Source: Blastocatellia bacterium (lineage in GTDB: Bacteria > Acidobacteriota > Blastocatellia > UBA7656). From it: a stretch of 64,000 nt of DNA. The notes beneath the pieces are model-generated. The model was not told where the DNA came from and ran no database searches. It saw nothing but the letters and a program-made list of their open reading frames with translations. The position numbers and the translations under genes are program-made. Positions 22,464 to 44,266 of the stretch are shown piece after piece; the stretch's first letter is position 1; every line of letters begins with the position of its first letter. Location: contig JBKHYJ010000015.1 in assembly GCA_046565505.1 (NCBI GenBank), forward strand, positions 13,600-77,599, read 5' to 3'.

Positions 22464-22526
22464 TTCTATGAATTGCAAAAACATCGCTCCCGCCCGCCCC
22501 AACTCAATAGCGTTTAGACTCGGCAG

Positions 22527-24881: not shown

Positions 24882-26900
24882 ATGAAGATTTGCACAAGCT
24901 GCGGCTCACCTGTACCGGCTGCTGACGAACGGTGCCCTCAGTGCGGGGCGCGGTCAGACGGTTTCACCGGCAGGCTCACAGGCACAACCCTCGTAGACAA
25001 ATACCTGATAGAAGAACCGCTCGGGGCGGGCGGAATGTGCGAAGTCTATCGCGCGCGGCACATCGCGATGGATAAAGAGGTCGCCATAAAAATACTCAAG
25101 CCCGAGCTCGCCGCGGACCCCAGGATCGCACAGCGGTTCGAGCAGGAGGCCCGCGCCGCCAGCCGCGTCCGCCACCCCCACGCGATAAACGTGACCGACT
25201 ATGGGATAGGGCAGGGCAACACTCCCTTCCTCGTCATGGAGCTTGTCGAAGGGCTGACCGTGCGCGAGATGCTCAGCCGCGATGGCCCTTTCACCATCGA
25301 GCGGGCCGCGAACATTCTGCACCAGGCCTGCGGCGCGCTGGAAGTGGCGCACTCTGTCGGCGTAATCCACCGCGACATCAAGCCGGACAACATAATCATC
25401 TCCGAATACGACGGCAGGGATTGGGTCGAGGTGGTCGATTTCGGGGTCGCAAAGATTCAGGAAGACGTGAACCGCCGCGCCGCGCTCACGGGGGCGAACT
25501 TCATAATAGGCACGCCGCGCTACATGTCGCCGGAGCAGTGCGAGGAGAAGCCCGTAGACGCCCGCAGCGACATCTACTCGCTGGGCGTCGTGGTCTACGA
25601 GATGCTCGCGGGCGAAGCCCCTTTCGAGGGCGGGTCTTCGACGCGGCTGCTGATGGCACATGTCGCAGAGCCCCCGCCGCCGCTCAGGGAGAAGCGGCCC
25701 GACATCTCGCCTGATGTAGAAGCGTTGGTGATGCGCGCGCTCGATAAGAACCCCGACCGCCGCCCGCAGAGCGCGGCCGAGTTCGCGCGGGAGTTCGAGC
25801 GGGCCGCCGGCGTCTCGCAGCCGGGCGCGGATACCGACCGCGGGGGCGCATTCTCTCGCATCAGCGTGCCATTGGATAATCAAGACGTTGTGCCCATCGG
25901 CGCGTCCCAGCCGCTTGAGGGGGCGGACGTAGAAGACGAAGAGACTCTCGTGAGGCGCAGGATGTCTTCAAGCCCGGAGGCTCTCGCGCCGAGCGACACG
26001 CTTCGAGACCTGGCGGATTTGAACCCGTACAACACGGTCGCCGAGGTGCAAGGCTCGGCCCCCTACAGGGCTGATCTCGGCCGACCCCGCTCTGCCTCGG
26101 ACCGCGACGAAGCGGACCTGCTGCCGGGCGAGCCCGACCCCCACGACCCGCAGATCAGGCCCGCCGCCGCGAGCGGAGAAAATCGCGACCGGACCTCTAA
26201 GAGGGAGGGCGGGTATAGAAATTACGCTCTTATAATCGCGTTCCTGGCGCTGATGCTAGCCCTGGGCTTCATCGGCTACGCAATTTTCGGGCGCCGCCCG
26301 GCCCCCGCGAATCCTACGGGCGAAAATTCAACTCAAGACGCGCGCACGGCCGAATCGCCTGCCGCCAAGCCTGAGTCGCCCGCCGCCTCGCCCGCCCCGC
26401 CGAGCACGAACGCTCCCGCGAACAAGCAGGCCGCCAGCGAGCCCCCCACCCCGACCGTCATCAACAAGCCTAACCCGAGCCCCGCGCCCGACGAGCCTAC
26501 GGAAGAGACTACTAGAGTTGATACCGGCAAGATAGAAAAGCAGGTGACCGCCACGGTGTTCAGGGCCTGGGGGGCGCTCGAGAATGGGAGCTTAAGTAAT
26601 CATATGAGTTACTATGCGCCCCGCCTTCGCACCTTCTATCTGAAGAACGACGTGGACCGGGCCTCGGCCCGGGCGGAGATCGCGGGCGCGATGAAGGCTT
26701 ACGACTCGCTCAAGTTCCGGTTCAGCAACATGGAGGTGCGGGTCGATCCTTCGGGCAGGAGCGCCATAGCCACCTACGATAAGTCATGGGACTTCGACGG
26801 CGACCAGCCGTGGTCGGGCACGGTCCGGGAAAGACTATGGCTCGTCAACAGCGGGGGCCGCTGGCTCATTAATGGCGTGAGAGATTTGAAGGTGTACTGA
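24882..26900 (+). CDS. Ser/Thr protein kinase: N-terminal zinc ribbon, Hanks kinase, TM, extracytoplasmic NTF2/SnoaL-like domain
   Basis: CTSCGSPVPAADERCPQCG zinc ribbon. Kinase motifs HRDIKPDN, DFGVAK and GTPRYMSPE. TM helix YALIIAFLALMLALGFIGYAIF. A Pro/Ala-rich linker precedes a C-terminal domain of about 120 aa. Confidence 0.85.
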   Translation: MKICTSCGSPVPAADERCPQCGARSDGFTGRLTGTTLVDKYLIEEPLGAGGMCEVYRARHIAMDKEVAIKILKPELAADPRIAQRFEQEARAASRVRHPHAINVTDYGIGQGNTPFLVMELVEGLTVREMLSRDGPFTIERAANILHQACGALEVAHSVGVIHRDIKPDNIIISEYDGRDWVEVVDFGVAKIQEDVNRRAALTGANFIIGTPRYMSPEQCEEKPVDARSDIYSLGVVVYEMLAGEAPFEGGSSTRLLMAHVAEPPPPLREKRPDISPDVEALVMRALDKNPDRRPQSAAEFAREFERAAGVSQPGADTDRGGAFSRISVPLDNQDVVPIGASQPLEGADVEDEETLVRRRMSSSPEALAPSDTLRDLADLNPYNTVAEVQGSAPYRADLGRPRSASDRDEADLLPGEPDPHDPQIRPAAASGENRDRTSKREGGYRNYALIIAFLALMLALGFIGYAIFGRRPAPANPTGENSTQDARTAESPAAKPESPAASPAPPSTNAPANKQAASEPPTPTVINKPNPSPAPDEPTEETTRVDTGKIEKQVTATVFRAWGALENGSLSNHMSYYAPRLRTFYLKNDVDRASARAEIAGAMKAYDSLKFRFSNMEVRVDPSGRSAIATYDKSWDFDGDQPWSGTVRERLWLVNSGGRWLINGVRDLKVY

Positions 26901-28794: not shown

Positions 28795-29257
28795 TCGGTT
28801 TATCTCCTGAAGACTTCTCCAAGCTGGGGATCGATCAAGTTAAGCGATACTAACATAGATCGCCGGCGAGAGGCCATAGGCGGGGCGAGGCCGCGGCCTC
28901 CTTTCGCGCGTTGTTGCTGAAGCCTCTGCGGGCCTGGTATATCAGTGATTCCCCCCGCCCTCCGGCCCGCGCGCAACGGCGATTTGAGAAGGCGGCTCGC
29001 ATTAAAATGACATGTCGCCGCCGGCGAGATCGGTCATTTAGAAGATAAGACCGGCGATGCGCCGGGGAGTTTGGGGGCCGGATTCTTCGTTTCATGCGAA
29101 TTCTCGCGGCCGGCGGCGCGGCATTATCTTTGCACTTATCAATCGACGAAAAGCCCCCTGCTAAAGGTGTATGCAAGAATCATTGGCAGCCACGAGCAAG
29201 AGCATTAGCACGAGGGATGGGACGCTCATTAACAAGCTACGCAGGCGAGAAAAATTG

Positions 29258-32200
29258 ATGACGCGCGCGCCGATGCCTCCGAAAGAAGAAGCGAGACTTG
29301 AGGCGCTGCGCCAGTACTGCATCCGCGACATCAAGCCTGAGGGGCCGATTGATGAGCTTGCCCGCCTCGCGGCGCAGATCTGCGCCGCACCCGTCGCCCT
29401 GCTAGGCATAGTCGAGGCGGACCGCGTCTGGTACAGGTCGAAGTCGGGCACGAGGTCCGCGGCCGTTGACAGGGATAAGGCATTCTGCTCCTGGGCCATC
29501 CTTCAGCCGGGCCTGTTCGTCATCAAAGACGCATCAAAGGACCCGAGATTCAAAGACAACCCGCTCGTCGCCGGCGAGCCTAAGATTCGGTTCTACGCCG
29601 CCGCGCCCCTCGTGACGCCCGAAGGCCACGCGCTCGGAACCCTGTGCGTCATCGACTATAAGCCTAGAGAGTTGAGCGCGCCGCAGGAGATGGCGCTACG
29701 CACGCTAGCCGGCGCCGCCGTCCACCACCTCGAACTCAGGCGACACGAGAAGGAGCTTCAGCAGGCGAAGGCCGACCACAAGCGGGCGCTCGACGCGCTG
29801 GCTGCCAGCGAGGAGCGTTATAACCTGATAGCGCGCAGCGCCAACGACGGGCTGTGGGACTGGAACCTGGAGACGAATGAGATCCGCTTCTGCCCCCGCT
29901 GGAAGGCGATGCTCGGGTACAAAGAGGACGAGATCGGCGCGCGGCCCGACGAGTGGTTCAACCGCGTTCACCCGGAAGACATTGAGCAGGTGCAGGAAGA
30001 GGTCACGGCTCACCTGCTCGGGCTGCGGCCGCAATTTCACAAAGAGTACCGCATGCGTAGGCAGGACGGCAGCTACCGCTGGATGCTGACGCGGGGCATG
30101 GCCGTGTGGGATTTCGACAGGCAGGTCTACCGCATGGCAGGCTCGGTCACCGACGTGACCGAGAACAAAGAGGCCGAGCAGCGCCTACTGCACAACGCGA
30201 CGCACGACGTTTTGACGGGCCTGCCCAACCGCGCGCTGTTTATGGACAGGCTGAAGCTGTTGTTTGACAGGGCGCGGCAGGACGGCGGCAACCTGTTCGC
30301 CGTCCTCTTCCTCGACCTCGACCGCTTCAAGATAGTCAACGACAGCCTCGGCCACCAGATAGGTGACCAGTTGTTAGTCTGCCTGGCGCGCCGCCTGGAA
30401 GCCTCGCTCCGCCCCGGCGACATCGTGGCGCGGCTGGGCGGCGACGAGTTCGCGATCATACTTGACGACCTCAACCACATCAGCGACGCGACGCAGGCCG
30501 CCGAGCGCATACACAAAGAACTGTGCGCGCCGTTCAACCTGAGCGGGCATGAGGTCTTCGCCTCCGTGAGCATAGGCATCGCCCACAGCGACACGCCATA
30601 CGAGCGCCCGGAAGACTTCATCCGAAACGCGGACACGGCGATGTACCGCGCCAAGGACCAGGGCAGGGGCAGGTTCGAGCTATTCGACAAAGGCATGCAC
30701 GTGCGCGCGGTGGCGCTGCTCGAGCTTGAGACGGACCTGAGGCGTGCGCTCGCGCGCGACGAGTTCTGCCTTCACTACCAGCCCATCGTCTCGATAGAGA
30801 ATTGGAGGATCGTCGGATTTGAAGCCCTGCTGCGGTGGCAGCACCCCGAACAGGGTTTCGTTTCTCCCACCAAGTTCGTCCCCGTGGCCGAGGAGACGGG
30901 CCTGATAAACCAGATCGGCCAGTGGGTGTTTCGCGAGGCCTGCAAGCAGCTGCGCGCGTGGCAGATTCAATTCCCGTCGGACCCGCCGCTGACGGTCAGC
31001 GTCAACCTCTCGGCCAAGCAGTTCTCCCACCCGGCCCTCATCGAAGAGATCGAGCAGGCGCTCGCGGAAACCGGCGTCTCCCCGAGCAGCCTCAAGATCG
31101 AAATCACGGAGGGCGCGATCATAGAGAACGTGGAAGTCGCGACGGACATACTGCGGCAGCTCAAGGCGCTCGGCATACGAATCTCGCTCGATGATTTCGG
31201 GACGGGGTATTCGAGCCTGAGCTACCTGCACCGCTTCCCGATAGACACGCTGAAGATAGACAGGTCATTCGTCACCCGCATGAGCATGCCCAAGAACTCC
31301 GAGATCGTCCGCACCATCATCACGCTGGCGGTCAACCTCGGCATGGACGTGATCGCCGAAGGCGTAGAGACGCGCGAGCAGATAATCCTGCTCACCGGGT
31401 TGAACTGCGAATACGTGCAGGGCTTCTTGCTGTCGAAGCCCGTCGATGGCAAGACCATGATGGAGTTGATAGAGCAGACGTACCAGAAGGGGTTGAATGA
31501 ACATGCGGAAGCGGTCTCGCGCGCTTTCGCGTCGCCGGCCGGGCTCGAAAAGGGGCTCGATTATGAGAAGGGGCTGACTCTAATGACTCCAGACCTGCCC
31601 GCGTTAGAGCCCGAAGGCCCGCTGGAATATCAGCCAGGTCTTGCCGCTGCAAACAGCTCCGGCTACGGGTTGCCCGAATCCCCGGCGCCAAGACGGCAGG
31701 GGCCCGTGCGCGCCGCGGAGCAGCCTGTGCCCGTAGAGTCCCCCGATAGATCGATGAGCAAGAACCGCCGCAGGTGCGAGCGATTCAAGTTGTCGCTGCC
31801 TGCGCGCGTGACGGGGTACGACCGAAAGACAGGAAAGTGGACGGAGACGGGCCAGACGGCCGACGTGAGCCGGGTGGGCGCGACCCTCAGCCTGGGCAGG
31901 CGCGTGCGCCACGGCAGCATAATACATCTGACGTTGCCGCTACCGCCTAAGCTGCGCACGCACGGCCACTCCGAGTCGAGCTACAGAGTCTACGCGATAG
32001 TCAGGCGCGTAGAGCCGCCGCGGGACGGAATAAGAATGATCGGCCTCGAATTCGTGGGCGAAAACCCCCCGGCCGGTTACCAGGAAAAGCCGTGGGCGCT
32101 ATTCCACAGCAGGAGGTGGACCGGGGCCGGGCGCAGGCGAGAGCCCAGGGAAGACAAGATGGAGGCGGTCACGATTGAGTACCTCACCGAGGGCATGGAG

Positions 32201-32431
32201 TCGCTCGGGCAGGAGCCCGCGCTCTCGGAGAACCGCAGCCGGAGCGGCATGCGTATCCTGCTTCAGAACGCGGCCCCCGATTTCGACATGTTGAGGATAT
32301 ACGGCCCGGAGCCTAACGCCGAGAAGATCGCGGCCGTGTGCAACCGCTACACGGGCAGCGACGGCTTCGAGCGGCTGTGCCTTCGATTCACGGGCAGAAG
32401 GGAAGCGGCGGCGGCCGTCTCCGCAGGTTAG
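29258..32431 (+). CDS. multidomain c-di-GMP protein: GAF - PAS - GGDEF - EAL - PilZ(-like) C-terminus
   Basis: An intact GGDEF motif (RLGGDEFAII), an intact EAL motif (GFEALLRWQHPE, plus the DDFGTGYSSL loop), a PAS region (DGLWDWNLETNEIRF) and a C-terminal PilZ signature (RRRCERFKL ... DVSRVGATLSLG). ORF 29171..32431, trimmed to the ATG at 29258. Confidence 0.85.
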   Translation: MTRAPMPPKEEARLEALRQYCIRDIKPEGPIDELARLAAQICAAPVALLGIVEADRVWYRSKSGTRSAAVDRDKAFCSWAILQPGLFVIKDASKDPRFKDNPLVAGEPKIRFYAAAPLVTPEGHALGTLCVIDYKPRELSAPQEMALRTLAGAAVHHLELRRHEKELQQAKADHKRALDALAASEERYNLIARSANDGLWDWNLETNEIRFCPRWKAMLGYKEDEIGARPDEWFNRVHPEDIEQVQEEVTAHLLGLRPQFHKEYRMRRQDGSYRWMLTRGMAVWDFDRQVYRMAGSVTDVTENKEAEQRLLHNATHDVLTGLPNRALFMDRLKLLFDRARQDGGNLFAVLFLDLDRFKIVNDSLGHQIGDQLLVCLARRLEASLRPGDIVARLGGDEFAIILDDLNHISDATQAAERIHKELCAPFNLSGHEVFASVSIGIAHSDTPYERPEDFIRNADTAMYRAKDQGRGRFELFDKGMHVRAVALLELETDLRRALARDEFCLHYQPIVSIENWRIVGFEALLRWQHPEQGFVSPTKFVPVAEETGLINQIGQWVFREACKQLRAWQIQFPSDPPLTVSVNLSAKQFSHPALIEEIEQALAETGVSPSSLKIEITEGAIIENVEVATDILRQLKALGIRISLDDFGTGYSSLSYLHRFPIDTLKIDRSFVTRMSMPKNSEIVRTIITLAVNLGMDVIAEGVETREQIILLTGLNCEYVQGFLLSKPVDGKTMMELIEQTYQKGLNEHAEAVSRAFASPAGLEKGLDYEKGLTLMTPDLPALEPEGPLEYQPGLAAANSSGYGLPESPAPRRQGPVRAAEQPVPVESPDRSMSKNRRRCERFKLSLPARVTGYDRKTGKWTETGQTADVSRVGATLSLGRRVRHGSIIHLTLPLPPKLRTHGHSESSYRVYAIVRRVEPPRDGIRMIGLEFVGENPPAGYQEKPWALFHSRRWTGAGRRREPREDKMEAVTIEYLTEGMESLGQEPALSENRSRSGMRILLQNAAPDFDMLRIYGPEPNAEKIAAVCNRYTGSDGFERLCLRFTGRREAAAAVSAG

Positions 32432-32804
32432 CCCCCGCCGCCCGGCAAGAGGTGTCGGGAGGAAGATAGAAAAAACTCGCGCCCTGTCACCACCACATCA
32501 TCCAGTAGCCTTCCCGTTACGCCTTCCCAACTAATCCGGCAGTCACGCGAGGCACGCCGGCAAGCGTCGGCCCCGCCTCATTCTTTGTCGCCGCCCGCGG
32601 GGGTAGCTCCGCGCGGCGTACGGCCGGTGGCCCCGCGTAACTTTAAGCTGTATGATTGAATCAATCGGGCCATTTACTGATCCGTGCCCGAGGTGGACGC
32701 GCATCATAATTGAAGCGATGAGACGCTACCCCATTCGGCCGCGCCCGGCCGCATCAAGTGGCACCCGCCACGTCCCGGATAATTCTCACCCGAGGCTAAT
32801 CGAT

Positions 32805-33665
32805 ATGGTTGAAAAAAAGAAGGAGACAGACTCCGCCCCCCACGGGCCGAGCCTCGACGAGCGCCAGGAGCGAATGGCCGAAGAGCGCAGCTCGGCCAAC
32901 GCGCACATCATTCACGAGGTGATACGAAAAGACGGCGAAGAAGAGTTACGCCGGACGACTTCAAGCCTGGCCTGGTCCGGCTTGGCCGCGGGACTCTCGA
33001 TGGGTTTTTCGCTCGTCGCCGAAGGCTTAATTCACTCGCACCTGCCGGACGCGCCCTGGCGGCCCATGCTCACGAAGCTCGGCTATAGCGTAGGGTTCCT
33101 CATCGTCGTGCTCGGGCGGCAGCAGTTGTTCACGGAGAACACGCTTACCCCCATAATACCGCTGCTCTCCCGGCGCGACGCCGCCACTTTCAAAAACGTC
33201 TTGAGGCTCTGGGGGGTCGTCCTCGCGGCCAACCTCGTGGGCGCCGCCCTGTTCGCGTGGGTGATAGGCCGCACGGAGGCCTTCAGCCCGGAGGCCCGCC
33301 ATAGCTTCGGCGAAATAGGGCGCGAGGCGATGGAAGGCGGCTTCGGAAAGATAATGCTGGAAGGCGTCTTCGCAGGGTGGCTGATAGCCCTGATGGTGTG
33401 GCTGCTCGCCGGCGCGAAATCGGGCCTCGTATCGATCATCGTCATAATAACATATCTTGTGGGGCTGGCAGGCTTGAGCCACATCATAGCCGGCTCAGTC
33501 GAGGCGATTTACCTCGTGGTGACCGGGGCCCAGTCCGCGGCCCGCGCCGCGCTCGGCTACATCATCCCCGCGCTTCTGGGCAACATCCTGGGCGGCGTGT
33601 CGCTCGTCGCCGCGCTCAACCATGCGCAGGTCGTCGCGGGGGGCGGCAAGAACGAAGAGGGCTGA
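32805..33665 (+). CDS. formate/nitrite transporter (FNT) family channel
   Basis: FNT signature LGRQQLFTENTL and six TM helices. ORF 32652..33665, trimmed to the Met before a charged N-terminus. Confidence 0.75.
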   Translation: MVEKKKETDSAPHGPSLDERQERMAEERSSANAHIIHEVIRKDGEEELRRTTSSLAWSGLAAGLSMGFSLVAEGLIHSHLPDAPWRPMLTKLGYSVGFLIVVLGRQQLFTENTLTPIIPLLSRRDAATFKNVLRLWGVVLAANLVGAALFAWVIGRTEAFSPEARHSFGEIGREAMEGGFGKIMLEGVFAGWLIALMVWLLAGAKSGLVSIIVIITYLVGLAGLSHIIAGSVEAIYLVVTGAQSAARAALGYIIPALLGNILGGVSLVAALNHAQVVAGGGKNEEG

Positions 33666-33914
33666 GGTACGCTCTTTGATACCCGGTCGTCGTGCGGTCG
33701 TGCTAGAGGCCAACAGCGGGTTCAGCGTCATGCCGCGCGCAGGTAGCGAGTCGAACTCGGCGCTCGCCCATGTCGCCGAGCGCGAATCGCGGGCGGATTA
33801 ACCACACACTTCAAAGCCATTATGTCCCAGCTATCTTGTCCCATCGGTCAGGCAATATTACGCATAAAGTCGGCATGGACGGCACAATGAGGTGTTGAAA
33901 TGCGTGTCTCACCC

Positions 33915-33930
33915 CGGCACAAAGGTTGCA
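33915..33930 (+). promoter_or_regulatory. sigma-54 (RpoN)-type -24/-12 promoter element upstream of xoxF
   Basis: cGGCACaaaggTTGCa matches TGGCAC-N5-TTGC(A/T) with the correct GG/GC spacing. It lies about 200 nt upstream of the xoxF start. Confidence 0.45.
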
Positions 33931-34126
33931 AAGCGCAAATCATGCATCACAACACTACTCTTGGTTTAATTCAGAGCGGTACGATACCTGGCGTATGAGC
34001 GCAGATATGGCTGACCGGCTGGCCGGGCGATTCGCGGTCAAAGTAAACATCTCCGTCCGAGGGTGATTCGCGCCGACGCATTGAATGATAGCCAAGGGGC
34101 CGGGTGTCTGCTATGAGAGCCGCGTT

Positions 34127-35998
34127 ATGAAAAGAATAAGGCTGGCTTCGTCTTTGACCTGTAATCTGTTCCTTATCACCGCAATCCTGTGCGCGCTTTT
34201 ATTGCCTATGGCGTGCTCGGACAAGCCTTCCGCGCAGCAGGTGCAACAGCAGCCGCCGACCGGCGCGCCCGCCGAGCAGCGGGCCGGGATGCCGCCCGGC
34301 TCGGCGGCCGAAGATGGCCAGTGGGTCATGCCCGCGAAGGATTACGCGAGCACGCGCTACAGCGGGCTTGACGAGATCAACGCGGATAACGTGAAGAACC
34401 TGAAAGTCGCCTGGACGTTTTCCACCGGGCTGGTGAACGGGCACGAGGCGGCCCCGCTGGTCGTGGGCGATACGATGTATGTCGTCACGCCGTTCCCGAA
34501 TTACCTCTACGCCCTGGACCTCACGCAGCCGGGCGCGCCCGTGAAGTGGAAGTACGACCCTAAGCCCGCCGCGGCCGCGCAAGGCGTCGCCTGTTGCGAC
34601 CTCGTCAACAGGGGGTGCGCCTACTCCAACGGCAAAATCTATTACAACACGCTCGATAATCACACGGTGTGCGTTGACGCGGGGACGGGCAAAGAAGTCT
34701 GGAAGACGAAACTGGGCGACATCAACCTGGGCGAGTCGATGACCATGGCGCCGCTCGTCGTGAAGGATAAGGTCCTGGTCGGCAACAGCGGCGGCGAATT
34801 CGGCGTGCGTGGCTGGCTCACGGCCGTCGACGCCAACACGGGCCAGATTGCCTGGAGGGCATACCACACGGGGCCCGATTCGGATTGCCTGATAGGGGCG
34901 AACTTCAGGCCGTATTACGAGCAGGACCGCGGGAAAGACCTGGGCGTTTCTTCCTGGCCCCCGGACGCCTGGAAGACGGGCGGGGCCGGGACATGGGGGT
35001 GGATTTCTTACGACCCGCAGATGAATCTGATCTACTACGGCACGGCCAACCCCGGCCCCTGGAACCCGGACCAGCGGCCCGGCGATAACAAGTGGACGTC
35101 GGGCATCTTCGCCCGCAACCCGGACAACGGCGAGGCCGTCTGGTTCTACCAGTGGAGCCCGCATGACTTGCACGATTACGATGGCATCAACGAGCAGATA
35201 CTGGTCGAGCTGCCTATCAACGGGCAGACTCGCAAAGTGCTGCTCAGGCCCGAGCGCAACGGTTACGTGTACGTGCTCGACCGCGCCACGGGCGAGGTGC
35301 TTTCGGCCACGCCTTTCGCCTACATCACTACGTCGAAAGGCGTGGACCTGAAGACGGGGCGGCTGATCTACAACGAAGAGACGAAGCCCGAAGTCGGCAA
35401 GGTGGTCCGCAACATCTGCCCCTTCTCGCCGGGGGCGAAGGACTGGCAGCCGTCCGCCTTCTCGCCCAGGACCGGGCTGCTCTACATCCCCGCGAGCAAC
35501 TGCTGCGAAGACGTCGAAAGCGTCGAGGCAAATTACATAGCGGGGACCCCGTTCGTCGGGATGAACGTGAAGATGTACGCGGGGCCGGGCGGCAACCGCG
35601 GCGAGTTCATCGGCTGGGACCCGGTGGGGCAGAAAAAAGTCTGGGGGATCAAAGAGAACTTCCCCGTCTGGAGCGGGGTGTGCGCGACGGCCGGCGACGT
35701 CGCTTTCTATGGCACTATGGACGGCTGGTTCAAGGCGGTCCATGCGCGCACGGGCGACGTGCTGTGGCAGTTCAAAGTCGGCTCGGGCATCATCGGCCAG
35801 CCGATCACCTACCGCGGGCCGGACGGCAAGCAGTACGTGGCGGTACTTTCCGGCGTCGGCGGGTGGCCCGGCGCGATTGTTTCCGTAGGGCTTGATCCGC
35901 GCGATCAGACGGCCGGCCTCGGGTTCGCGGCCGCGATGTCTGACCTGCCGGATTACTCGACCAGGGGCGGCATGCTTTACGTCTTCTCGCTGCCCTAG
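34127..35998 (+). CDS. xoxF: PQQ-dependent alcohol (methanol/ethanol) dehydrogenase, lanthanide-type (XoxF/ExaF/PedH-like)
   Basis: An eight-bladed PQQ propeller with the vicinal Cys pair (VACCDLVNRG), the catalytic Asp, and an additional Asp two residues later (HDLHDYDGIN, the DYD motif). Signal peptide. Confidence 0.85.
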   Translation: MKRIRLASSLTCNLFLITAILCALLLPMACSDKPSAQQVQQQPPTGAPAEQRAGMPPGSAAEDGQWVMPAKDYASTRYSGLDEINADNVKNLKVAWTFSTGLVNGHEAAPLVVGDTMYVVTPFPNYLYALDLTQPGAPVKWKYDPKPAAAAQGVACCDLVNRGCAYSNGKIYYNTLDNHTVCVDAGTGKEVWKTKLGDINLGESMTMAPLVVKDKVLVGNSGGEFGVRGWLTAVDANTGQIAWRAYHTGPDSDCLIGANFRPYYEQDRGKDLGVSSWPPDAWKTGGAGTWGWISYDPQMNLIYYGTANPGPWNPDQRPGDNKWTSGIFARNPDNGEAVWFYQWSPHDLHDYDGINEQILVELPINGQTRKVLLRPERNGYVYVLDRATGEVLSATPFAYITTSKGVDLKTGRLIYNEETKPEVGKVVRNICPFSPGAKDWQPSAFSPRTGLLYIPASNCCEDVESVEANYIAGTPFVGMNVKMYAGPGGNRGEFIGWDPVGQKKVWGIKENFPVWSGVCATAGDVAFYGTMDGWFKAVHARTGDVLWQFKVGSGIIGQPITYRGPDGKQYVAVLSGVGGWPGAIVSVGLDPRDQTAGLGFAAAMSDLPDYSTRGGMLYVFSLP

Positions 35999-36847
35999 AT
36001 GGGGTGGGACACATTGCCGTATAGCAACAGGCGGGCGCGGGCGGCCGTTTCGCTATTCGCGCTGACGACGTTCTTACTCTCTACCCCTTCGTGCGCTCAC
36101 AAAGGGCAGGTCGGCGCCGCGCGGCAGCTGCGCGTGTGCGCGGACCCGAATAACCTCCCGTTCTCCAACGAGCGGATGGAAGGGTTCGAGAACAAGATCG
36201 CCGACTTATTAGCTCATGAAATGAACGCGGGGGTCGCCTACACGTGGTGGGCGCAGCGGCGCGGCTTCATCAGGAACACGCTGAAGGACTGCAAGTGCGA
36301 CCTCGTGATGGGCGTGCCGAGCAGCTTCGAGCTTGCGCTCACGACCAGCCCCTACTACCGCTCCACCTACGTCTTCGTCTACAGGAAAGACCGCGGGGTG
36401 AGCGTGCGTTCTTTCGACGACCCCATCCTGCGCAAGGTCAAAGTGGGCGTCCAGATGATCGGCGACGATTACGCGAACGCGCCGCCCGCGCATGCGCTCT
36501 CGAAGCGCGGGATCATCCAGAATGTGAAGGGCTACACGGTGTATGGCGACTACTCGCAGGACAACCCCCCCGCGAGGATCATAGACGCGCTCATCAACGG
36601 CGAGATCGACGTGGCTATCGTGTGGGGGCCGCTCGCGGGCTACTTCGCGAAGCGCGCCGCCGTGCCGGTCGAGATCGTCCCGGTCTCGCCGCAGATCGAC
36701 CGGCCGTTCCTCCCCTTCGTCTATGACATCTCTATGGGGGTCAGGCGGGGGGAAGACGCATTCAAGGAGGAGCTGGAGAGCATACTAGAGCGGAAGCGGC
36801 CGGAGATCGAGAGCATACTCGACGAATACGGAGTGCCGCGACTTTAA
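35999..36847 (+). CDS. xoxJ: quinoprotein dehydrogenase-associated periplasmic substrate-binding protein (XoxJ/MxaJ-like, SBP family 3)
   Basis: Directly abuts the xoxF stop. It has a signal peptide and SBP3 fold motifs (RVCADPNNLPFSN ... IDVAIVWGPLAGYFA). Confidence 0.7.
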   Translation: MGWDTLPYSNRRARAAVSLFALTTFLLSTPSCAHKGQVGAARQLRVCADPNNLPFSNERMEGFENKIADLLAHEMNAGVAYTWWAQRRGFIRNTLKDCKCDLVMGVPSSFELALTTSPYYRSTYVFVYRKDRGVSVRSFDDPILRKVKVGVQMIGDDYANAPPAHALSKRGIIQNVKGYTVYGDYSQDNPPARIIDALINGEIDVAIVWGPLAGYFAKRAAVPVEIVPVSPQIDRPFLPFVYDISMGVRRGEDAFKEELESILERKRPEIESILDEYGVPRL

Positions 36848-37005
36848 GGGACGGTGAGCGCGGAACGATGAACGACGAGGCGGAAGACGATGAGCCGGGA
36901 GGGCGTGGGTTTCGAATCGCTAACCGCGAATCGGAAACAGGGGGGCCGCGGCCCCGCCATCCCGCTCCCGTCGCCGCGCTTTCGCCGTCCGATTCGGGGG
37001 AGAAG

Positions 37006-37560
37006 ATGCGTTTTACAAGAAGTGTCTCGGTAACGCTGTGCGCCCTCTCGGTCGCCCTGGCCTTCGCTTCCTGCGAGAGGGAGCGGCGCGAGTTCAAAGG
37101 GTCGCCCCCGCCGGTCACCCCGGTCAACGACGTGCGGCAGAGCGAGCTGCGGCCCGGGCCGCCCATGCCCGACAACAGGGCCGAAGCCCCCTACGTGGAC
37201 AACGCCTACGCCATGTCTGAAGGCAAGCGGCTCTTTGAATCGATGAACTGCGTGGGGTGCCACGCGCACGGGGGAGGGGCCATCGGGCCGCCGCTGATCG
37301 ACGAGAAGTGGATTTATGGCGCCAGCCCGGAGAACATCTACGCCACCATCGTGGAGGGCCGGCCCAACGGCATGCCCGCATTCGCGGACAAGATCCCGAA
37401 TGATCAAATCTGGCAGATCGTCGCCTACGTGCGCTCTCTGAATGGGATGGCGTCAAAGGACGCCGCCCCGAGCAGGAGCGATCACATGCAGGCAAAGCCC
37501 GCCGAGCAGTCCACCAAACAAGAGCCCCTCAGGACTCAGAGGGCCGAGCACAAGCCGTGA
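37006..37560 (+). CDS. lipoprotein class-I c-type cytochrome (candidate electron acceptor for the dehydrogenase / donor to caa3 oxidase)
   Basis: CVGCHAHGG heme-binding site with a downstream Met ligand (NGMPAF) and a lipobox (LAFASCE). ORF 36868..37560, trimmed to the ATG at 37006, which follows a GGGGGAGAAG RBS. Confidence 0.7.
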   Translation: MRFTRSVSVTLCALSVALAFASCERERREFKGSPPPVTPVNDVRQSELRPGPPMPDNRAEAPYVDNAYAMSEGKRLFESMNCVGCHAHGGGAIGPPLIDEKWIYGASPENIYATIVEGRPNGMPAFADKIPNDQIWQIVAYVRSLNGMASKDAAPSRSDHMQAKPAEQSTKQEPLRTQRAEHKP

Positions 37561-37563
37561 ACG

Positions 37564-38646
37564 TTGTCTGTGACCACAGATGAGCGGAGGGAAGAGATGA
37601 AGGCGGACGATCACAACTCATGGAGGGGCCGCGGCGGGCGGGCGGCTTGTGGGCCGGGGGCGACGCACCTGTGTTTACCGCCCGCGGCTTGCCTCCACCT
37701 GTGGCCCCACTCCGCGCTCGACCCCGCCGGGCCGCAGGCGGGCAGGATCAGCCACGTCTGGTGGGTGATGTTCGTCGTCAGCGTAATCGTTTTCGCCCTG
37801 GTGATCATGTTTTTATTCTTCGCCATCTACCGCGCGCGGCGCAGGGAAGCGCCCGCCGCCGAGCCGGAGGCCCGCCGAAAGATGACGCGGGCGGTGGTGG
37901 CCGCGACCGTTTTGACTACGGTCATCTTGTTCGGGCTTCTGGTCGATGATGTCATAGTGGGGAGGGCGCTATCTTCGCTGCCCGCCCATAACGACCTCGC
38001 AATCGAAGTGGTAGGGCACCAGTGGTGGTGGGAAGTGAGGTACCCTCATGAGGACCCCAGCCAGAGCTTCACGACGGCCAACGAGATACACATCCCCGTC
38101 GGCAGGTCCGTCATGCTGACGCTCACGTCGCGCGACGTTATTCACAGCTTCTGGGTGCCGAACCTGCACGGCAAGAAAGACCTCATCCCAGGTCACATGA
38201 ATACCATGTGGGTTCAAGCCGACAGCCCCGGCGTCTATCGCGGCCAGTGCGCGGAATTCTGCGGATACCAGCACGCGCACATGGCGCTGGTCGTCGTGGC
38301 CGAACCGGAAGAGCAATTCGACGCCTGGTACGACCGGCAGCGCTCGCCGGCGGTTCAGCCGACAGACCCTCAGCAGGCGAGGGGGCAACAGGTCTTCCTA
38401 TCGTCGCGCTGCGTCATGTGTCACAGGGTCGTGGGCACGCCGGCGGGCTCTATCGTCGGGCCCGACCTCACGCACGTCGGCGGCAGGCAAGAGATTGCCG
38501 CGGGCGCGTTACCTAACACGCGCGATCACCTGGCCAGGTGGGTCGTAGACTCGCAGGAGGTGAAGCCTGGCAACCGGATGCCCCCTAATAACTTCAGCCC
38601 CGAAGACCTCGACGCGATGCTAGCTTACCTGGAGGGCTTGAAATGA
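37564..38646 (+). CDS. coxB: cytochrome c oxidase subunit II with C-terminal cytochrome c domain (caa3-type)
   Basis: A CuA site (H...CAEFCGYQHAHM) and a C-terminal CVMCH heme c site. The true N-terminal start is uncertain. Confidence 0.8.
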   Translation: MSVTTDERREEMKADDHNSWRGRGGRAACGPGATHLCLPPAACLHLWPHSALDPAGPQAGRISHVWWVMFVVSVIVFALVIMFLFFAIYRARRREAPAAEPEARRKMTRAVVAATVLTTVILFGLLVDDVIVGRALSSLPAHNDLAIEVVGHQWWWEVRYPHEDPSQSFTTANEIHIPVGRSVMLTLTSRDVIHSFWVPNLHGKKDLIPGHMNTMWVQADSPGVYRGQCAEFCGYQHAHMALVVVAEPEEQFDAWYDRQRSPAVQPTDPQQARGQQVFLSSRCVMCHRVVGTPAGSIVGPDLTHVGGRQEIAAGALPNTRDHLARWVVDSQEVKPGNRMPPNNFSPEDLDAMLAYLEGLK

Positions 38647-40598
38647 GCCTGGACACGAAAGTCATGTCGCCCGACGAGGCGCGTGCGGCCGACCCGGCCG
38701 AAGAGCGCGAGCGCCGCAAGCTAGAAGAGACCTGGCGCACGCCCCCGGGGCTGCTCGGGTGGTTTATGACCACCAACCATAAGTCCATCGCCAAGCGCTA
38801 CATCGTCACCGCTTTCATCTTCTTTCTCCTCGGCGGGCTAGAGGCCGCGGCGATGCGCCTTCAGCTGTCGCGGCCCGAGAACCGATTCCTGGGGCCGGAC
38901 CTCTACAATCAGATTTTCAGCATGCATGGCACGACGATGATGTTCCTGTTCGCGGTCCCGATCATGGAGGCGATGGGGCTCTACTTCGTGCCGCTGATGA
39001 TAGGGACGCGCAACGTCTCCTTCCCGCGCATGAACGCCTATGGCTATTACGCCTACCTGATCGGCGGGCTGTTGCTGTACGTCGGCTTCGTGCTCGGGAT
39101 AGGGGTGGACACGGGCTGGTTCAGCTACGTGCCGCTCTCGGGGCCGGATTTTTCGCCCGGCAAGAGGGTCGATTTCTGGGCGCAGATGATAACCTTCACG
39201 GAGATAGCGGCGCTGGTGTCGGCCGTGGAGATAATCGTCACGGTGTTCAAGCAGCGGGCGCCCGGCATGTCGCTCAATCGCGTCCCGCTGTTCGTGTGGG
39301 CGATGGTCGTGACATCTTTCATGGTGTTGTTCGCCATGCCCGCCATCATGCTCGCAAGCTCGATGCTGGCGATGGACAGGCTCGTCAGCACACACTTCTT
39401 CAACCCGGCCGAAGGCGGCGACGCGATACTGTGGCAGCACCTCTTCTGGTTCTTCGGCCACCCGGAAGTCTACATCATCTTCATACCCGCGACGGGGATG
39501 GTTTCGACCATCCTGCCCGCGTTCACGCGCCGCGGCGTCTTCGGGTACACGGCCCTCGTGCTGTCGCTCGTGGCGACGGGGTTCATAGGCTTCGGCCTGT
39601 GGGTTCACCACATGTTCGCCACGGACGTGCCGCAGCTCGGGCAGAGCTTCTTTACGGCCGCCAGCGTAATGATCGCCGTCCCGAGCGGGATACAAATCTT
39701 CTGCTGGATAGCGACGCTGTGGGGCGGGAAGCTTCACCTGAAAACGCCCCTGCTGTTCGTGCTCGGGTTCGTCGCGCTGTTCGTGCTGGGCGGGCTGACG
39801 GGCGTGATGCTGGCGGCGGTGCCGCTGGACCTCCAGGTGCACGACACGTATTTCGTGGTCGCGCACTTCCACTACGTGCTGATAGGGGGCGCGGTCTTCC
39901 CGCTCTTCGGGGCTTTCTATTACTGGTTCCCGAAGTGGACGGGCCGCATGCTCGACGAGCGAATGGGCAGGTGGAATTTCTGGCTGATGTTCATCGGGTT
40001 CAACGTCACTTTCTTCCCCATGCACCAGCTCGGGCTCAGGGGAATGCCCCGGCGGGTCTACACCTACCTCGAAGGGAACGGGTGGGACGGCATGAACCTG
40101 ATCGCGTCAGCGGGCGCGGCCATCATCGCCGCGAGCGTGCTGGTTTTTCTCATCAATGTTTTCAAGAGCCGCGGCGGCGGCCTCGCGGCGGGGGGGGACC
40201 CCTGGGGTTCCGACACGCTCGAATGGGCCACGGCCTCGCCCCCGCCGGACTATAACTTCCAATACATCCCGACGGTGAACGGGCGCGAGGCGCTGTGGAC
40301 CCGCGACGAGGAGACGCCGGTCGTCACAGGGCTCCGCAGCGAGTGCCGGGAGGTGCTGATTACCAAGACGCTCGACGCGGAGCCCGACCACAGGCACGAG
40401 CTGCCCGGCCCGTCCATCTGGCCGCTGGTGCTCGCGCTCGCGACAGGCTTCACGTTCATCGCCGGCATATTCACCCCGTGGGCCTTCCCCATCGGCGCGG
40501 TCTTGAGCCTGGCGGCCCTCGTCGGGTGGTTCTGGTCAGGCAACGAAGCGAAGAATTACCCGCCGCACGAAGGCGGGCCATCGGAGAGCCCGACATGA
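38643..40598 (+). CDS. ctaD: cytochrome c oxidase subunit I (heme-copper oxidase, type A) with C-terminal extension
   Basis: GHPEVYIIFIPATGMVS, WVHHMF and HFHYVLIGG motifs. Its start overlaps the coxB stop (ATGA). Confidence 0.9.
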   Translation: MSLDTKVMSPDEARAADPAEERERRKLEETWRTPPGLLGWFMTTNHKSIAKRYIVTAFIFFLLGGLEAAAMRLQLSRPENRFLGPDLYNQIFSMHGTTMMFLFAVPIMEAMGLYFVPLMIGTRNVSFPRMNAYGYYAYLIGGLLLYVGFVLGIGVDTGWFSYVPLSGPDFSPGKRVDFWAQMITFTEIAALVSAVEIIVTVFKQRAPGMSLNRVPLFVWAMVVTSFMVLFAMPAIMLASSMLAMDRLVSTHFFNPAEGGDAILWQHLFWFFGHPEVYIIFIPATGMVSTILPAFTRRGVFGYTALVLSLVATGFIGFGLWVHHMFATDVPQLGQSFFTAASVMIAVPSGIQIFCWIATLWGGKLHLKTPLLFVLGFVALFVLGGLTGVMLAAVPLDLQVHDTYFVVAHFHYVLIGGAVFPLFGAFYYWFPKWTGRMLDERMGRWNFWLMFIGFNVTFFPMHQLGLRGMPRRVYTYLEGNGWDGMNLIASAGAAIIAASVLVFLINVFKSRGGGLAAGGDPWGSDTLEWATASPPPDYNFQYIPTVNGREALWTRDEETPVVTGLRSECREVLITKTLDAEPDHRHELPGPSIWPLVLALATGFTFIAGIFTPWAFPIGAVLSLAALVGWFWSGNEAKNYPPHEGGPSESPT

Positions 40599-41203
40599 AG
40601 CAGAGGCCGGCCATAGACGTTTCACACTTGCCGCTTCACGCCTACGGCAGCCACACGACGCTCTGGTGGGGCAACGTGCTGATGTGCGTCATCGAAGGGA
40701 CGATGTTCGCGATAGTCGTCGCGTCCTACTTTTACATCCGCAAGGTGTTCCCCCACTGGCCGCCGCTTAACACGCCGTTCCCGGACCTGCTGCCCGGGAC
40801 CGTTAATACTGTCATCCTGCTTGTGAGCTGTGCGCCGATGGTGTGGGTGCACAGGCTCGCCGTGGGTGAGGGGAGCCAGCGCGCGATTCAGGCCGGGGTC
40901 TTGATATGCATCGCCCTCATGCTGACGTCAATCGCGCTGCGCTGGTTCGAGTTCCCGCGGATGTTTTCTCAGTGGGACTCGAACGCTTATGGGTCGATCA
41001 CCTGGACGGCGCTCGGCTTACACCTCGGCCACCTGCTTGCCGCCACGGCGGAAGCCTCCGTGCTCGCCGCATGGATGTTCACGCATGAGCTTGACGAGAA
41101 GCACAGGCTGGACCTCAACATGCTGGCTCTCTACTGGTATTTCGTGGTCGGCGCGTGGGCTATACTTTACCCCGTCCTCTATTTCGGGCCTCGCCTGCTG
41201 TAG
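40595..41203 (+). CDS. cytochrome c oxidase subunit III-family membrane protein
   Basis: Its start overlaps the ctaD stop (ATGA at 40595-40598). It has 5 TM helices. The HAYGSHTTLWWGNVLMCVIEG pattern is typical of subunit III. Confidence 0.65.
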   Translation: MKQRPAIDVSHLPLHAYGSHTTLWWGNVLMCVIEGTMFAIVVASYFYIRKVFPHWPPLNTPFPDLLPGTVNTVILLVSCAPMVWVHRLAVGEGSQRAIQAGVLICIALMLTSIALRWFEFPRMFSQWDSNAYGSITWTALGLHLGHLLAATAEASVLAAWMFTHELDEKHRLDLNMLALYWYFVVGAWAILYPVLYFGPRLL

Positions 41204-41222
41204 CGCCGCGGAGGGATCAGAA

Positions 41223-41600
41223 GTGACGGCCGAGACGAAAAAAGATACCTCGAATGGCGGAAGGCTCTTGAACCTGTGGGCGGGGCTGTTCGCCGCGCCT
41301 GTCGCATGGCTGGTCGAGCTACAGCTCCACTACATGCTGGTCCCGTGGGCCTGCTCGACCGGGCGTCACTTCGTCTTGCACCTGATCACAGTCGCGGCCC
41401 TGCTGGTCGCCGTGGTAGGGGGCGTACTGGCCTGGCAGGGTTGGCGGCAGTCCGGGCCTGGGTGGCCCGATGGCTCCGGCGGCCCCGCGCCGCGCAGCCG
41501 GTTTATGGCCGTAACGGGGCTGCTGCTCAGCGCGCTCTTTTTCTTCGTAATACTGGCGCAGGGAATCCCCATCTTCGTCTTGAACCCATGTCAGCAGTGA
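41223..41600 (+). CDS. small 3-TM membrane protein, possible caa3 oxidase subunit IV-like
   Basis: A GTG start follows a GGAGGGA RBS. The call rests on position within the oxidase operon and on hydrophobicity only. Confidence 0.35.
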   Translation: MTAETKKDTSNGGRLLNLWAGLFAAPVAWLVELQLHYMLVPWACSTGRHFVLHLITVAALLVAVVGGVLAWQGWRQSGPGWPDGSGGPAPRSRFMAVTGLLLSALFFFVILAQGIPIFVLNPCQQ

Positions 41601-42556
41601 CCAGGAAAATGCCGCGCCCTTCGCCCCGCCGGCCGGCGCTCGCCCTCTCCTTCGTTGCGGCGCTCGCGGGCGACGCGCTGGCGCACGGGGGCAAGCCGCA
41701 CGGGCCGGGCGACCTCCTGACGACCTGGGGCCTGGAGCCGGTCGTGCTGGTGGGGCTTGCGCTCGCCGGCTGGCTTTACGTACGAGGCGTGAGGCGGCTG
41801 TGGCGGGAGTCTTCCGCGGGCCTCGGCATTCGCAGGTGGGAGGCCGCGTGTTACGCGGCCGGGTGGCTCGCGCTGTTCGTCGCGCTCGTGTCCCCGCTCC
41901 ACCCGATGGGGAGCGTGCTGTTCTCCGCGCACATGACTCAGCATGAAGTGCTGATGCTGGTCGCCGCGCCGCTACTGGTGCTGGGCCGCCCCCTGATCGC
42001 TTACCTGTGGGCGCTGCCCGTGCGGTGGCGGCGCAAGGCGGGCCGTGTCGGGAAAGTCGGCTGGGTGGGGGCGAGCTGGCATGCCGTCACGAACCCGCTC
42101 GCGGCATGGGCGATTCACGCGGTGGCGCTGTGGGTGTGGCATGCGCCGGCGCTCTTTCAGGCGACGCTCAAAAGCGAGCTGGTCCATACAACACAGCACC
42201 TGACCTTTCTACTTTCCGCGCTGCTGTTCTGGTGGGCGCTCATACACGGGCGCCACGCGCTGATGGGGTACGGCGCGGCGGTGCTCTACATGTTCACCAC
42301 GTCCGTACACAGCGGGGTCCTGGGGGCGCTGCTGACGTTCGCCTCTTCGGTGTGGTATCCGGCTTACTCGGCGACGACCGAGTCGTGGGGGCTCACGCCC
42401 CTCGAAGACCAGCAGCTCGGCGGGCTGATAATGTGGGTGCCGGCGGGCCTGGTCTACCTCTTCGCGGGCCTCGCGCTGTTCGCCGGGTGGCTGCGCGAAT
42501 CGGAGCGCAGGGTCTTGAGGCGCGAGGGCCGGCCCGGGTCATACAGTGAGGGTTAA
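41588..42556 (+). CDS. ctaG: cytochrome c oxidase assembly factor CtaG (caa3-type, PF09678-like)
   Basis: A multi-TM protein with a conserved HMTQHEVLM segment, downstream of the oxidase subunits. ORF 41276..42556, trimmed to the ATG at 41588. Confidence 0.6.
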   Translation: MSAVTRKMPRPSPRRPALALSFVAALAGDALAHGGKPHGPGDLLTTWGLEPVVLVGLALAGWLYVRGVRRLWRESSAGLGIRRWEAACYAAGWLALFVALVSPLHPMGSVLFSAHMTQHEVLMLVAAPLLVLGRPLIAYLWALPVRWRRKAGRVGKVGWVGASWHAVTNPLAAWAIHAVALWVWHAPALFQATLKSELVHTTQHLTFLLSALLFWWALIHGRHALMGYGAAVLYMFTTSVHSGVLGALLTFASSVWYPAYSATTESWGLTPLEDQQLGGLIMWVPAGLVYLFAGLALFAGWLRESERRVLRREGRPGSYSEG

Positions 42557-42562
42557 AACAAA

Positions 42563-43567
42563 ATGCGAGTGACGCGCCGATTCGTCCTGGCCTGCTGCCT
42601 TGCGGCGGCCGTCTGTGCACAAGCCCTGCCGGCCGCCGGCCGTCAGAGGGCGCCCGCGTTCGCCTACGTGAGCAACGAGCGGGATGGGACGGTAACGGTC
42701 ATCAACACGGCTACCGACGCGGTGGTCTCTACGATCCGCGTGGGCGGGCGGCTGCGCGGCATACAACTGAGCCCGAACGGCAAGAGGCTGTACGTCGCGA
42801 TGACTTACCCGTCCAATCGCAGGGAGAGCGAGACCGACAAGATCGTCGCCATCGACGCGGCGAGCGGCAGCGTGATCGCGAAGTACGACGCGGGCAGCGA
42901 CCCCGAACAGTTCGCGGTCAGCCGGGATGGGATGCGGCTCTACACTTCAAACGAGGACGCGGGGACGGCGTCGGTGACGGACCTGCGTACGGGCCGCGTC
43001 ATCGCCACGCATGTGGTCGGGATAGAGCCCGAGGGGGTCGCGCTCAGCCCGGACGGCCGCTGGGTCTACGTGACGGCCGAGAGCAGCAGCAACGTCACGG
43101 TGATAGACACGCGGACGAACAAGGTGAAGGCCACGTTCCCCGTAGGCGCGCGGCCGCGTTGCGCCGCCTTCTCGCCCGACGGGCTGCGCGCCTACGTGAC
43201 GGCCGAGAATGGCGGGACGGTGTCGGTCGTCAACACGGCTACGCACAAGGTTATCGACACGATCGAATTGCCGCGCGGGCAGGTCAAACCCATGGGCATA
43301 GCGGTGTCGCGCGATGGCAGGCGCATCTACGTCACCAATGGGCGGGGGAATTCGGTGGCGGTCATCGACAGCAGGAGCCGCAAGGTCATGGCGATGGTCC
43401 CGGTGTCGCAGCGCCCCTGGGGCATCGCCATCACCCCCGACGGCAGGAAGATTTACACGGCCAACGGGCTGTCGAACGACGTGGCCGTTATAGACGCGGC
43501 CACCAACAGAGTAATCACGACCGTCAAGGCGGGTGACGGGCCGTGGGGGATCGCGATGAGCCATTGA
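42563..43567 (+). CDS. YVTN-family beta-propeller repeat protein (PQQ-dependent catabolism-associated beta-propeller type)
   Basis: A signal peptide plus seven repeats of about 40 aa ending in YV(T/A) (AYVSNERDGTVTVINTAT..., LYVAMT..., VYVTAESSSNVTVIDTRT..., AYVTAENGGTVSVVNTAT..., IYVTNGRGNSVAVIDSRS..., IYTANGLSNDVAVIDAAT). Confidence 0.75.
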   Translation: MRVTRRFVLACCLAAAVCAQALPAAGRQRAPAFAYVSNERDGTVTVINTATDAVVSTIRVGGRLRGIQLSPNGKRLYVAMTYPSNRRESETDKIVAIDAASGSVIAKYDAGSDPEQFAVSRDGMRLYTSNEDAGTASVTDLRTGRVIATHVVGIEPEGVALSPDGRWVYVTAESSSNVTVIDTRTNKVKATFPVGARPRCAAFSPDGLRAYVTAENGGTVSVVNTATHKVIDTIELPRGQVKPMGIAVSRDGRRIYVTNGRGNSVAVIDSRSRKVMAMVPVSQRPWGIAITPDGRKIYTANGLSNDVAVIDAATNRVITTVKAGDGPWGIAMSH

Positions 43568-43596
43568 CGCTCCGCGTCGCCGGCCGAGGGGGCACT

Positions 43597-44145: not shown

Positions 44146-44266
44146 CGGGCGTTCTTGTCCTGGTTTTAATTCGGCGGCTTTTAACCCTTTGAGGTGTTTA
44201 TTACTTACCCTGCTATGCCCTCTATCGCCGTGCGCGGCAGATTGATCGCGGGCGAAAGCCCGCGCC

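Follow-up and report, generated by a model that had tools for sequence, protein, structure and literature searches.

The 64,000-nucleotide stretch analysed here (the window; contig JBKHYJ010000015.1 of assembly GCA_046565505.1) comes from a Blastocatellia-like acidobacterium and carries, on its forward strand, an open reading frame (ORF) that very probably encodes the catalytic subunit of a XoxF-type methanol dehydrogenase dependent on both a lanthanide and pyrroloquinoline quinone (PQQ). The enzyme is most likely a XoxF3 and would feed the cytochrome and oxidase that are encoded along with it. Systems of the XoxF3 type have already been described for soil Acidobacteria, and the finding is correct but ordinary. 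The gene lies as follows:

34127..35998, + strand: xoxF, predicted XoxF-type PQQ methanol dehydrogenase of 623 amino acids (aa) (TIGR03075 643 bits; PDB 4MAE E 2e-202)

The whole protein matches TIGR03075, the NCBIfam model for PQQ-dependent dehydrogenases of the methanol/ethanol family, over profile positions 16-530 of 530 (E 3e-193), well beyond the curated cutoff of 480 bits, and the ORF is also matched by Pfam PQQ. The PQQ alcohol dehydrogenase that a first-pass annotation had read at this place is therefore borne out, and since the whole ORF is a member of this family, its motifs HDLHDYDGIN and VACCD are no chance strings. Among solved structures the protein is closest to the cerium/europium XoxF of strain SolV (4MAE, 55% identity across 561 aligned residues; also 6FKW), followed by the lanthanide XoxF enzymes 6OC5, 7O6Z and 6DAM and then by the calcium-dependent MxaF of Methylococcus capsulatus (4TQO, 48.6%), the top solved relatives being Ce, Eu, La or Nd XoxF enzymes. 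An AlphaFold model (mean predicted local distance difference test, pLDDT, 74.8; predicted template modelling score, pTM, 0.79) finds its best structural match in 6FKW/4MAE, with a template modelling (TM) score of 0.88 normalised to the target; the model was used for the fold only, the eight-bladed propeller of the family, because its active-site loops are of low confidence.

Residues are numbered from the ATG at 34127, which lies inside the mechanical ORF 34085..35998 (+). This start is preferred to 34085 because the closest homologs begin with MKR or MDR at the same position and because amino-acid changes with respect to the nearest relative are concentrated in the upstream codons: 3 of the 14 codons between 34085 and the ATG are changed, as compared with only 3 in the approximately 560 residues of the propeller. 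Against that relative, which is identical in 96.8% of nucleotides, 49 codon differences are synonymous and 11 are non-synonymous; besides the 3 in the propeller, the latter include 4 in aa 31-61 and one at aa 28, within the signal peptide. The gene is under purifying selection.

The residues expected to hold the metal and the cofactor are located as follows, all on the + strand:

34592..34597, + strand: vicinal Cys156-Cys157 of VACCD (aa 154-158, nt 34586-34600), aligned with 4MAE and 4TQO
34796..34798, + strand: Glu224, metal ligand equivalent to Glu172 of 4MAE, within an S-G-G-E of XoxF type, from alignment and conservation
35048..35050, + strand: Asn308, metal ligand (Asn256 of 4MAE), from alignment and conservation
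35162-35191, + strand: HDLHDYDGIN, aa 346-355
35174..35182, + strand: D350-Y351-D352, with D350 as catalytic base and ligand and D352 as the lanthanide-specific Asp

Positions were mapped by HMMER alignments and by one MAFFT alignment of the query with 4MAE (XoxF) and 4TQO (MxaF). The triad D350-Y351-D352 corresponds to D299-Y300-D301 of 4MAE and to D303-Y304-A305 of 4TQO. The remaining ligands are common to the three proteins (E224, which is E172 in 4MAE and E177 in 4TQO; N308, which is N256 and N261, respectively), and so are the vicinal cysteines C156-C157 (C104-C105; C103-C104), R377 (R326; R330) and W290 (W238; W243). At three further sites the query has the XoxF-type residue: S221 and G223 match S169 and G171 of 4MAE against A174 and A176 of 4TQO, and D439 matches D388 against N393. 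The PQQ-contact set E107, R162, W290, R377, W515 and W580, together with C156-C157, is aligned with the residues of 4MAE. When the query was aligned with 120 database relatives, E224, N308, D350, D352, C156 and C157 were invariant in all 121 sequences, and R377, W290, W580, S221/G223 and D439 were invariant or nearly so. The first-pass annotation had taken the second Asp of the motif for a lanthanide ligand and had pointed to a vicinal Cys-Cys pair in VACCD; both claims hold, given that D352 occupies the place of Asp301 in 4MAE and of Ala305 in MxaF and so sits at the homologous metal-ligand position, not a look-alike site, and that the cysteines align with the pairs of 4MAE and MxaF.

Two further features of the protein were observed. 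Three residues past the Asn ligand, in N-P-G-P-W (aa 308-312, 35048-35062), there is a Pro throughout the query clade, like that of MxaF NPAPW; solved XoxF enzymes have Thr or Leu at this site (NPGTW, NPSTW, NPGLW), the SolV XoxF having Thr. In addition, a second vicinal Cys-Cys pair occurs in ASNCCED (aa 459-460, 35501-35506). The pair is common to only 8 of the 121 sequences: C460 is kept in 120 of them, and the C459 position is Cys in those 8 and usually Leu. By its position C460 probably matches the cysteine of the second, non-vicinal disulfide of MxaF, paired with C431.

The gene heads a cluster with the order xoxF-xoxJ-xoxG-coxII-coxI-coxIII-small membrane protein-ctaG-yncE-like, whose xoxJ, xoxG and cytochrome oxidase genes are the strongest evidence from context and had been overlooked in the first-pass annotation. 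Downstream of xoxF the members are:

35999..36847, + strand: xoxJ-like periplasmic binding protein (TIGR03871 315 bits, cutoff 212)
37006..37560, + strand: xoxG-like class I c-type cytochrome with heme motif CVGCH and lipoprotein signal Cys23 (Pfam Cytochrome_CBB3/Cytochrom_C; mechanical ORF start 36868)
37597..38646, + strand: coxII, subunit II of caa3 type that ends in a cytochrome c domain (TIGR02866 192 bits, cutoff 148; mechanical start 37564)
38643..40598, + strand: coxI, cytochrome c oxidase subunit I (TIGR02891 720 bits, cutoff 671)
40595..41203, + strand: coxIII (Pfam COX3 E 6e-14)
41223..41600, + strand: small hydrophobic protein, 125 aa (begins with GTG; GGAGG 8 nt upstream)
41603..42556, + strand: ctaG, caa3 oxidase assembly factor (Pfam Caa3_CtaG E 7e-62; alternative start 41588; gene call in the nearest relative, L082)
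42563..43567, + strand: YncE-like TIGR03866 propeller (294.8 bits, cutoff 287.3), near the cluster in many loci

The xoxJ-like protein scores only 156 bits against the MoxJ family TIGR03870, under its cutoff of 258. In CoxII the Cytochrom_C domain spans aa 272-359, and a 349-aa gene is called in L082. The 125-aa protein drew no match from Pfam or NCBIfam at a threshold as loose as E 5; it is kept between coxIII and ctaG in most related loci and corresponds to the hypothetical protein of ~110-130 aa between CoxIII and CtaG in the XoxF3 systems of PMC10875860, a position that suggests a small oxidase subunit, subunit IV-like. The string of genes is closed by a NUDIX hydrolase gene (43543-44145, + strand), which is probably not part of the module because it is missing from L082 and because the alignment of the window with that relative's Joint Genome Institute (JGI) contig breaks for about 600 bp exactly there.

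From 34127 to 44145 the gaps between consecutive genes are 0, 158, 3, -4, -4, 19, -13, 6 and -25 nt. No MxaI-like gene lies in this interval, which has no unassigned coding space, and when an approximate MxaI sequence was run against the whole window by tblastn at permissive settings, it gave noise only (best E 1.4), a negative that is weak, above all beyond the operon. The absence of a small subunit from the neighbourhood, as first annotated, is thus borne out. Promoter and terminator scans of 32300-34300 and 43400-44400 yielded nothing usable for operon boundaries, the sole yield being a weak site at 44147-44160 that resembles a terminator. Neither Rfam families (gathering threshold) nor tRNA genes turned up when the whole window was scanned.

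Soil metagenomes and genome bins of Blastocatellia/Pyrinomonadaceae supply the closest XoxF proteins (70-99% identity), some of them labelled 'lanthanide-dependent methanol dehydrogenase' by their sources; the relative at 99% identity lies on the 204.8-kb JGI contig in the same gene order. A scan with one genome per species gave 80 related loci, in which gene order was traced by tblastn with the window proteins. They span Acidobacteriota, Gemmatimonadota, Verrucomicrobiota, Methylomirabilota, Myxococcota and Proteobacteria, with hosts such as Corallococcus exercitus (Myxococcota) and Phenylobacterium, Sphingomonas horti and Burkholderiales (Proteobacteria); C. exercitus SDU142 and Phenylobacterium deserti are carriers available in culture. 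The order xoxF-xoxJ-xoxG-coxII-coxI-coxIII-small-ctaG is kept in most of the 80, often with a YncE-like gene nearby, and a plasmid of Methylocella tundrae holds the same genes rearranged. In a neighbour-joining tree the query falls in a tight multi-phylum clade (68-82% identity), which includes the M. tundrae plasmid copy and stands apart from XoxF1 (7O6Z, 50%), XoxF2 (4MAE, 55%), XoxF5 (6OC5/6DAM, 50%) and MxaF (48%). A single other PQQ dehydrogenase served as outgroup. The phylogenetic placement that had been proposed as a check thus puts the enzyme outside XoxF1, XoxF2, XoxF5 and MxaF, and its most likely assignment to clade XoxF3 rests on exclusion, gene context, literature and taxonomy.

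In this regard, the literature agrees closely with the window. All XoxF systems of Acidobacteria in the genomes studied by Voutsinos et al. (2024, BMC Biol, PMC10875860), including those of group 4 Blastocatellia, are XoxF3, and XoxF3 is co-localised there with CoxI, CoxII, CoxIII, CtaG, cytochrome c, XoxG, XoxJ, a hypothetical protein of ~110-130 aa and YncE; the presence of cox and ctaG genes in some xoxF3 operons was first noted in the review of Keltjens et al. 2014 (PMC10875860). The window cluster has this complete neighbourhood (xoxJ, xoxG, coxI/II/III, the small hypothetical gene, ctaG and YncE). The window therefore most likely contains one more XoxF3 system, alike in host phylum and class, in the extra Asp and in the full gene set to those of Acidobacteria and Gemmatimonadetes (PMC10875860). 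It differs from them in that no NRAMP or TonB receptor gene adjoins it, and its lipoprotein-type signals and recurrent FNT gene, both considered below, go unmentioned there. XoxF3 has also been described as the most abundant type of methanol dehydrogenase in metagenomes of soil and weathered rock. Clade 3 xoxFJG operons are known from Methylocella strains (PMC6778391), and in Methylosinus trichosporium OB3b cerium raises XoxF3 and the adjacent XoxJ (PMC12482762).

The query may also be compared with characterized enzymes. The XoxF2 of Methylacidiphilum fumariolicum SolV (4MAE, 6FKW) is the closest solved structure and agrees with the query in its four metal ligands as well as in its Cys-Cys pair and PQQ contacts; however, the query belongs to another clade, shows Pro instead of the Thr of SolV in NPG(T/P)W, and is distinguished by a lipobox-like signal with a linker of 31 aa and by the cytochrome oxidase operon beside it. 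The XoxF1 and XoxF5 enzymes of Methylacidimicrobium (7O6Z), Methylorubrum extorquens (6OC5) and Methylotuvimicrobium buryatense (6DAM) share ~50% identity, an aligned D-Y/F-D and xoxFGJ-type genes with the window but form separate clades, and the window cytochrome is no cytochrome cL equivalog. MxaFI (4TQO, 1W6S) is alike in fold, Cys-Cys pair, Glu, Asn and catalytic Asp, whereas MxaF has Ala for Asp352 and A/A for S221/G223 and requires MxaI, which is absent here.

Several points weigh against the reading of the ORF as a lanthanide-dependent methanol dehydrogenase of clade XoxF3. The XoxG-like cytochrome scores only 46 bits against the cytochrome cL (MoxG/XoxG) family TIGR03872, whose cutoff is 147.8, and owes its name to position and literature usage only. 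Among the window ORFs scanned against Pfam there were no genes for PQQ biosynthesis or lanthanide uptake (TonB receptor, lanmodulin, NRAMP), and none for formaldehyde or formate oxidation or for C1 assimilation. The structural model, predicted with no cofactors, has pLDDT below 50 at active-site residues 346-351. The clade name was reached by exclusion, context and literature because the tree holds no labelled XoxF3 or XoxF4 reference. XoxF3 enzymes have the extra aspartate, and as of 2024 none had been purified or assayed, leaving the clade without biochemical data (PMC10875860); the lanthanide-dependent alcohol oxidation predicted at first pass is here supported by ligand homology. Finally, Methylocella silvestris hardly expresses its XoxF3, which shows no response to lanthanum, and one Asp-bearing XoxF1 of Methylocella is repressed by lanthanum (PMC9291206), a caveat to predicting metal response from this residue.

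XoxF enzymes accept several alcohols as well as formaldehyde, and TIGR03075 spans methanol and ethanol enzymes, which leaves room for a lanthanide- and PQQ-dependent enzyme whose physiological substrate is not methanol but some other small alcohol, such as ethanol, or an aldehyde, such as formaldehyde, in the manner of ExaF/PedH. PedH and ExaF belong to the same superfamily and follow the same lanthanide-Asp principle. Such a substrate would fit the lack of methylotrophy pathway genes among the ORFs scanned, and a formaldehyde oxidation pathway occurs in only 3 of 38 XoxF-bearing genomes (PMC10875860). We nevertheless regard it as unlikely, given that the protein scores 473-677 bits with methanol dehydrogenases and 316-343 bits, at 35% identity, with ethanol-type PedH/ExaA (339-343 bits and ~35% for PedH/ExaF, 6ZCW, where the accessory genes also differ). 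Moreover, the tree groups the query with XoxF/MxaF, well apart from the single outgroup PQQ dehydrogenase, and its xoxJ- and xoxG-type neighbours are typical of methanol dehydrogenase systems.

A calcium-dependent, MxaF-like methanol dehydrogenase in which DYD is incidental would account for the 48-49% identity to 4TQO and for the Pro of NPGPW, which recalls MxaF NPAPW rather than the NPGTW of SolV XoxF. It is nonetheless highly improbable: Asp352, at the position of MxaF Ala305, is invariant in the clade, S221/G223 and D439 are of XoxF type, and the clade stands apart from MxaF. Identity with MxaF was accordingly rejected on the Asp in place of Ala at +2 and on the lack of mxaI downstream. 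The chance is slighter still that the protein is a cofactor-less or non-catalytic quinoprotein, such as an acidobacterial 'empty quinoprotein', or a purely regulatory XoxF. The secondary match to TIGR04528 (acido-empty-quinoprotein group A), to which the lack of pqq genes in the window may be added, reaches 330 bits, far under the cutoff of 650 on which membership of group A was rejected, and the residues that contact PQQ and bind the metal are all retained without variation, with dedicated cytochrome and oxidase genes following xoxF.

Returning to the lanthanide-dependent methanol dehydrogenase, the following model can be proposed. XoxF would be exported to the periplasm, where it would bind PQQ beside the Cys156-Cys157 disulfide and coordinate a light lanthanide ion by four residues: Glu224, Asn308, Asp350 and Asp352, the additional aspartate. 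Methanol would be oxidised to formaldehyde and probably on to formate, and the electrons would pass to the XoxG-like c-type cytochrome, encoded two genes downstream, and from it to a caa3-type oxidase (CoxII with its fused cytochrome c, CoxI, CoxIII, the small subunit-like protein and the assembly factor CtaG), at which oxygen would be reduced. We infer the metal preference, the substrate and this path of electrons, as well as the co-transcription of the cluster, from the features described above.

The N-termini of XoxF and XoxG bear on how such a chain might be laid out. In XoxF the relevant elements are:

34127..34216, + strand: signal peptide with lipobox-like L-P-M-A-C, Cys30 at nt 34214-34216 (model helix aa 2-25)
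34217..34309, + strand: linker aa 31-61, rich in Pro/Gln/Ser/Ala, from Cys30 to the propeller start EDGQW (pLDDT below 50 at residues 30-61)

Comparable linkers of 24-43 aa occur in XoxF homologs. Signals were judged by a PROSITE PS51257-type lipobox rule (K/R in the n-region, an uncharged h-region, [LIVMFWSTAG]2-[LIVMFYSTAGCQ]-[AGS]-C, and Cys at 15-35). Among homologs with complete N-termini, 103 of 112 have a Cys at the lipobox place, and the rule in its strict form is satisfied by 65 of 112; the XoxF of the window (PMAC) fails it, solely because of the Pro at -3. Window XoxG (aa 1-23, 37006-37074) passes with Cys23, and in almost all related loci, across phyla, a conserved C-x-R-E-x-R-x-F and a Pro-rich stretch come after its lipobox Cys. 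The XoxJ of the window fails the rule, which 19 of 71 homologs pass under a crude recovery of N-termini. Ordinary A-x-A-type signals are found in the XoxF of Burkholderiales, Sphingomonas, Verrucomicrobia, Methylomirabilota and Terriglobales. From their sequences, XoxG has a lipoprotein-type signal followed by a flexible linker, and XoxF probably has one as well. A literature search for XoxF with lipobox or lipoprotein retrieved nothing that links them, only an unrelated paper on a SolV lipoprotein.

Upstream of xoxF, by 461 nt, lies another gene that may be connected with the cluster:

32805..33665, + strand: formate/nitrite-family (FNT) channel gene (Pfam Form_Nir_trans E 4e-50; mechanical ORF start 32652)

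An FNT homolog occurs within 10 kb of xoxF in 13 of the 80 loci (L001, L016, L019, L024, L025, L031, L034, L036, L038, L055, L057, L067 and L070), in varied positions, orientations and phyla, and the gene is possibly associated with the xoxF cluster. The channel may import formate made in the periplasm; as an association only, the linkage fits a periplasmic oxidation that runs through to formate, followed by import.

These traits, read from sequence, allow a tentative and rather doubtful view of the XoxF3 module as a membrane-tethered, self-contained methanol-to-oxygen respiratory unit rather than soluble proteins of the periplasm, in which XoxG as a lipoprotein in nearly all phyla, along with XoxF, would be held by flexible Pro/Gln-rich linkers beside the caa3 oxidase, and in which oxidation would proceed to formate in the periplasm, with FNT import supplying a cytoplasmic formate dehydrogenase. 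It is a possible part of the same view, to be held no more firmly, that XoxF itself would be a lipoprotein in Acidobacteriota, Gemmatimonadota and some Proteobacteria and Myxococcota.

Other features of the window were recorded around the module. Immediately past the xox/cox cluster on its downstream side, but on the other strand (44267-47811, -), are a gene for cyanophycin synthetase (891 aa) and then a Peptidase_S51 (cyanophycinase-like) gene. Upstream of FNT and xoxF lie a large GAF-PAS-GGDEF-EAL-PilZ signalling protein (29171-32431, +) and a Ser/Thr protein kinase that begins with a zinc ribbon (24882-26900, +), in the same order as in L082. The region 18000-24000, which may be acquired DNA, has a G+C content of 0.565-0.577 as compared with about 0.63 elsewhere, is sparsely coding with ORFs of low GC3 (G+C at third codon positions), and holds a 443-aa ORF (18349-19680, -) and two genes for Crp/HTH-type regulators. 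At 51100-53502 (+) a protein of 800 aa is encoded in which a domain of the serine beta-lactamase family is fused to a VanX-like M15 D-Ala-D-Ala dipeptidase domain, and the window has a gene for D-Ala-D-Ala ligase at another place (16069-17181, -). Three consecutive ORFs in 12367-16049, of 402 aa (+), 535 aa (+) and 271 aa (-), have high GC3 and no Pfam match at E 1e-5.

Taken together, the window provides one more well-preserved example, most likely of XoxF3, with complete accessory and oxidase genes, that could serve as a template for expression. The known picture is left unchanged, as earlier work had inferred rare-earth-dependent methanol oxidation in Acidobacteria from these very sequence features. 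For their part, the signals of lipoprotein type on XoxG and XoxF and the FNT gene that recurs near xoxF could guide experiments on the layout of the electron chain and on the site where formate is formed.

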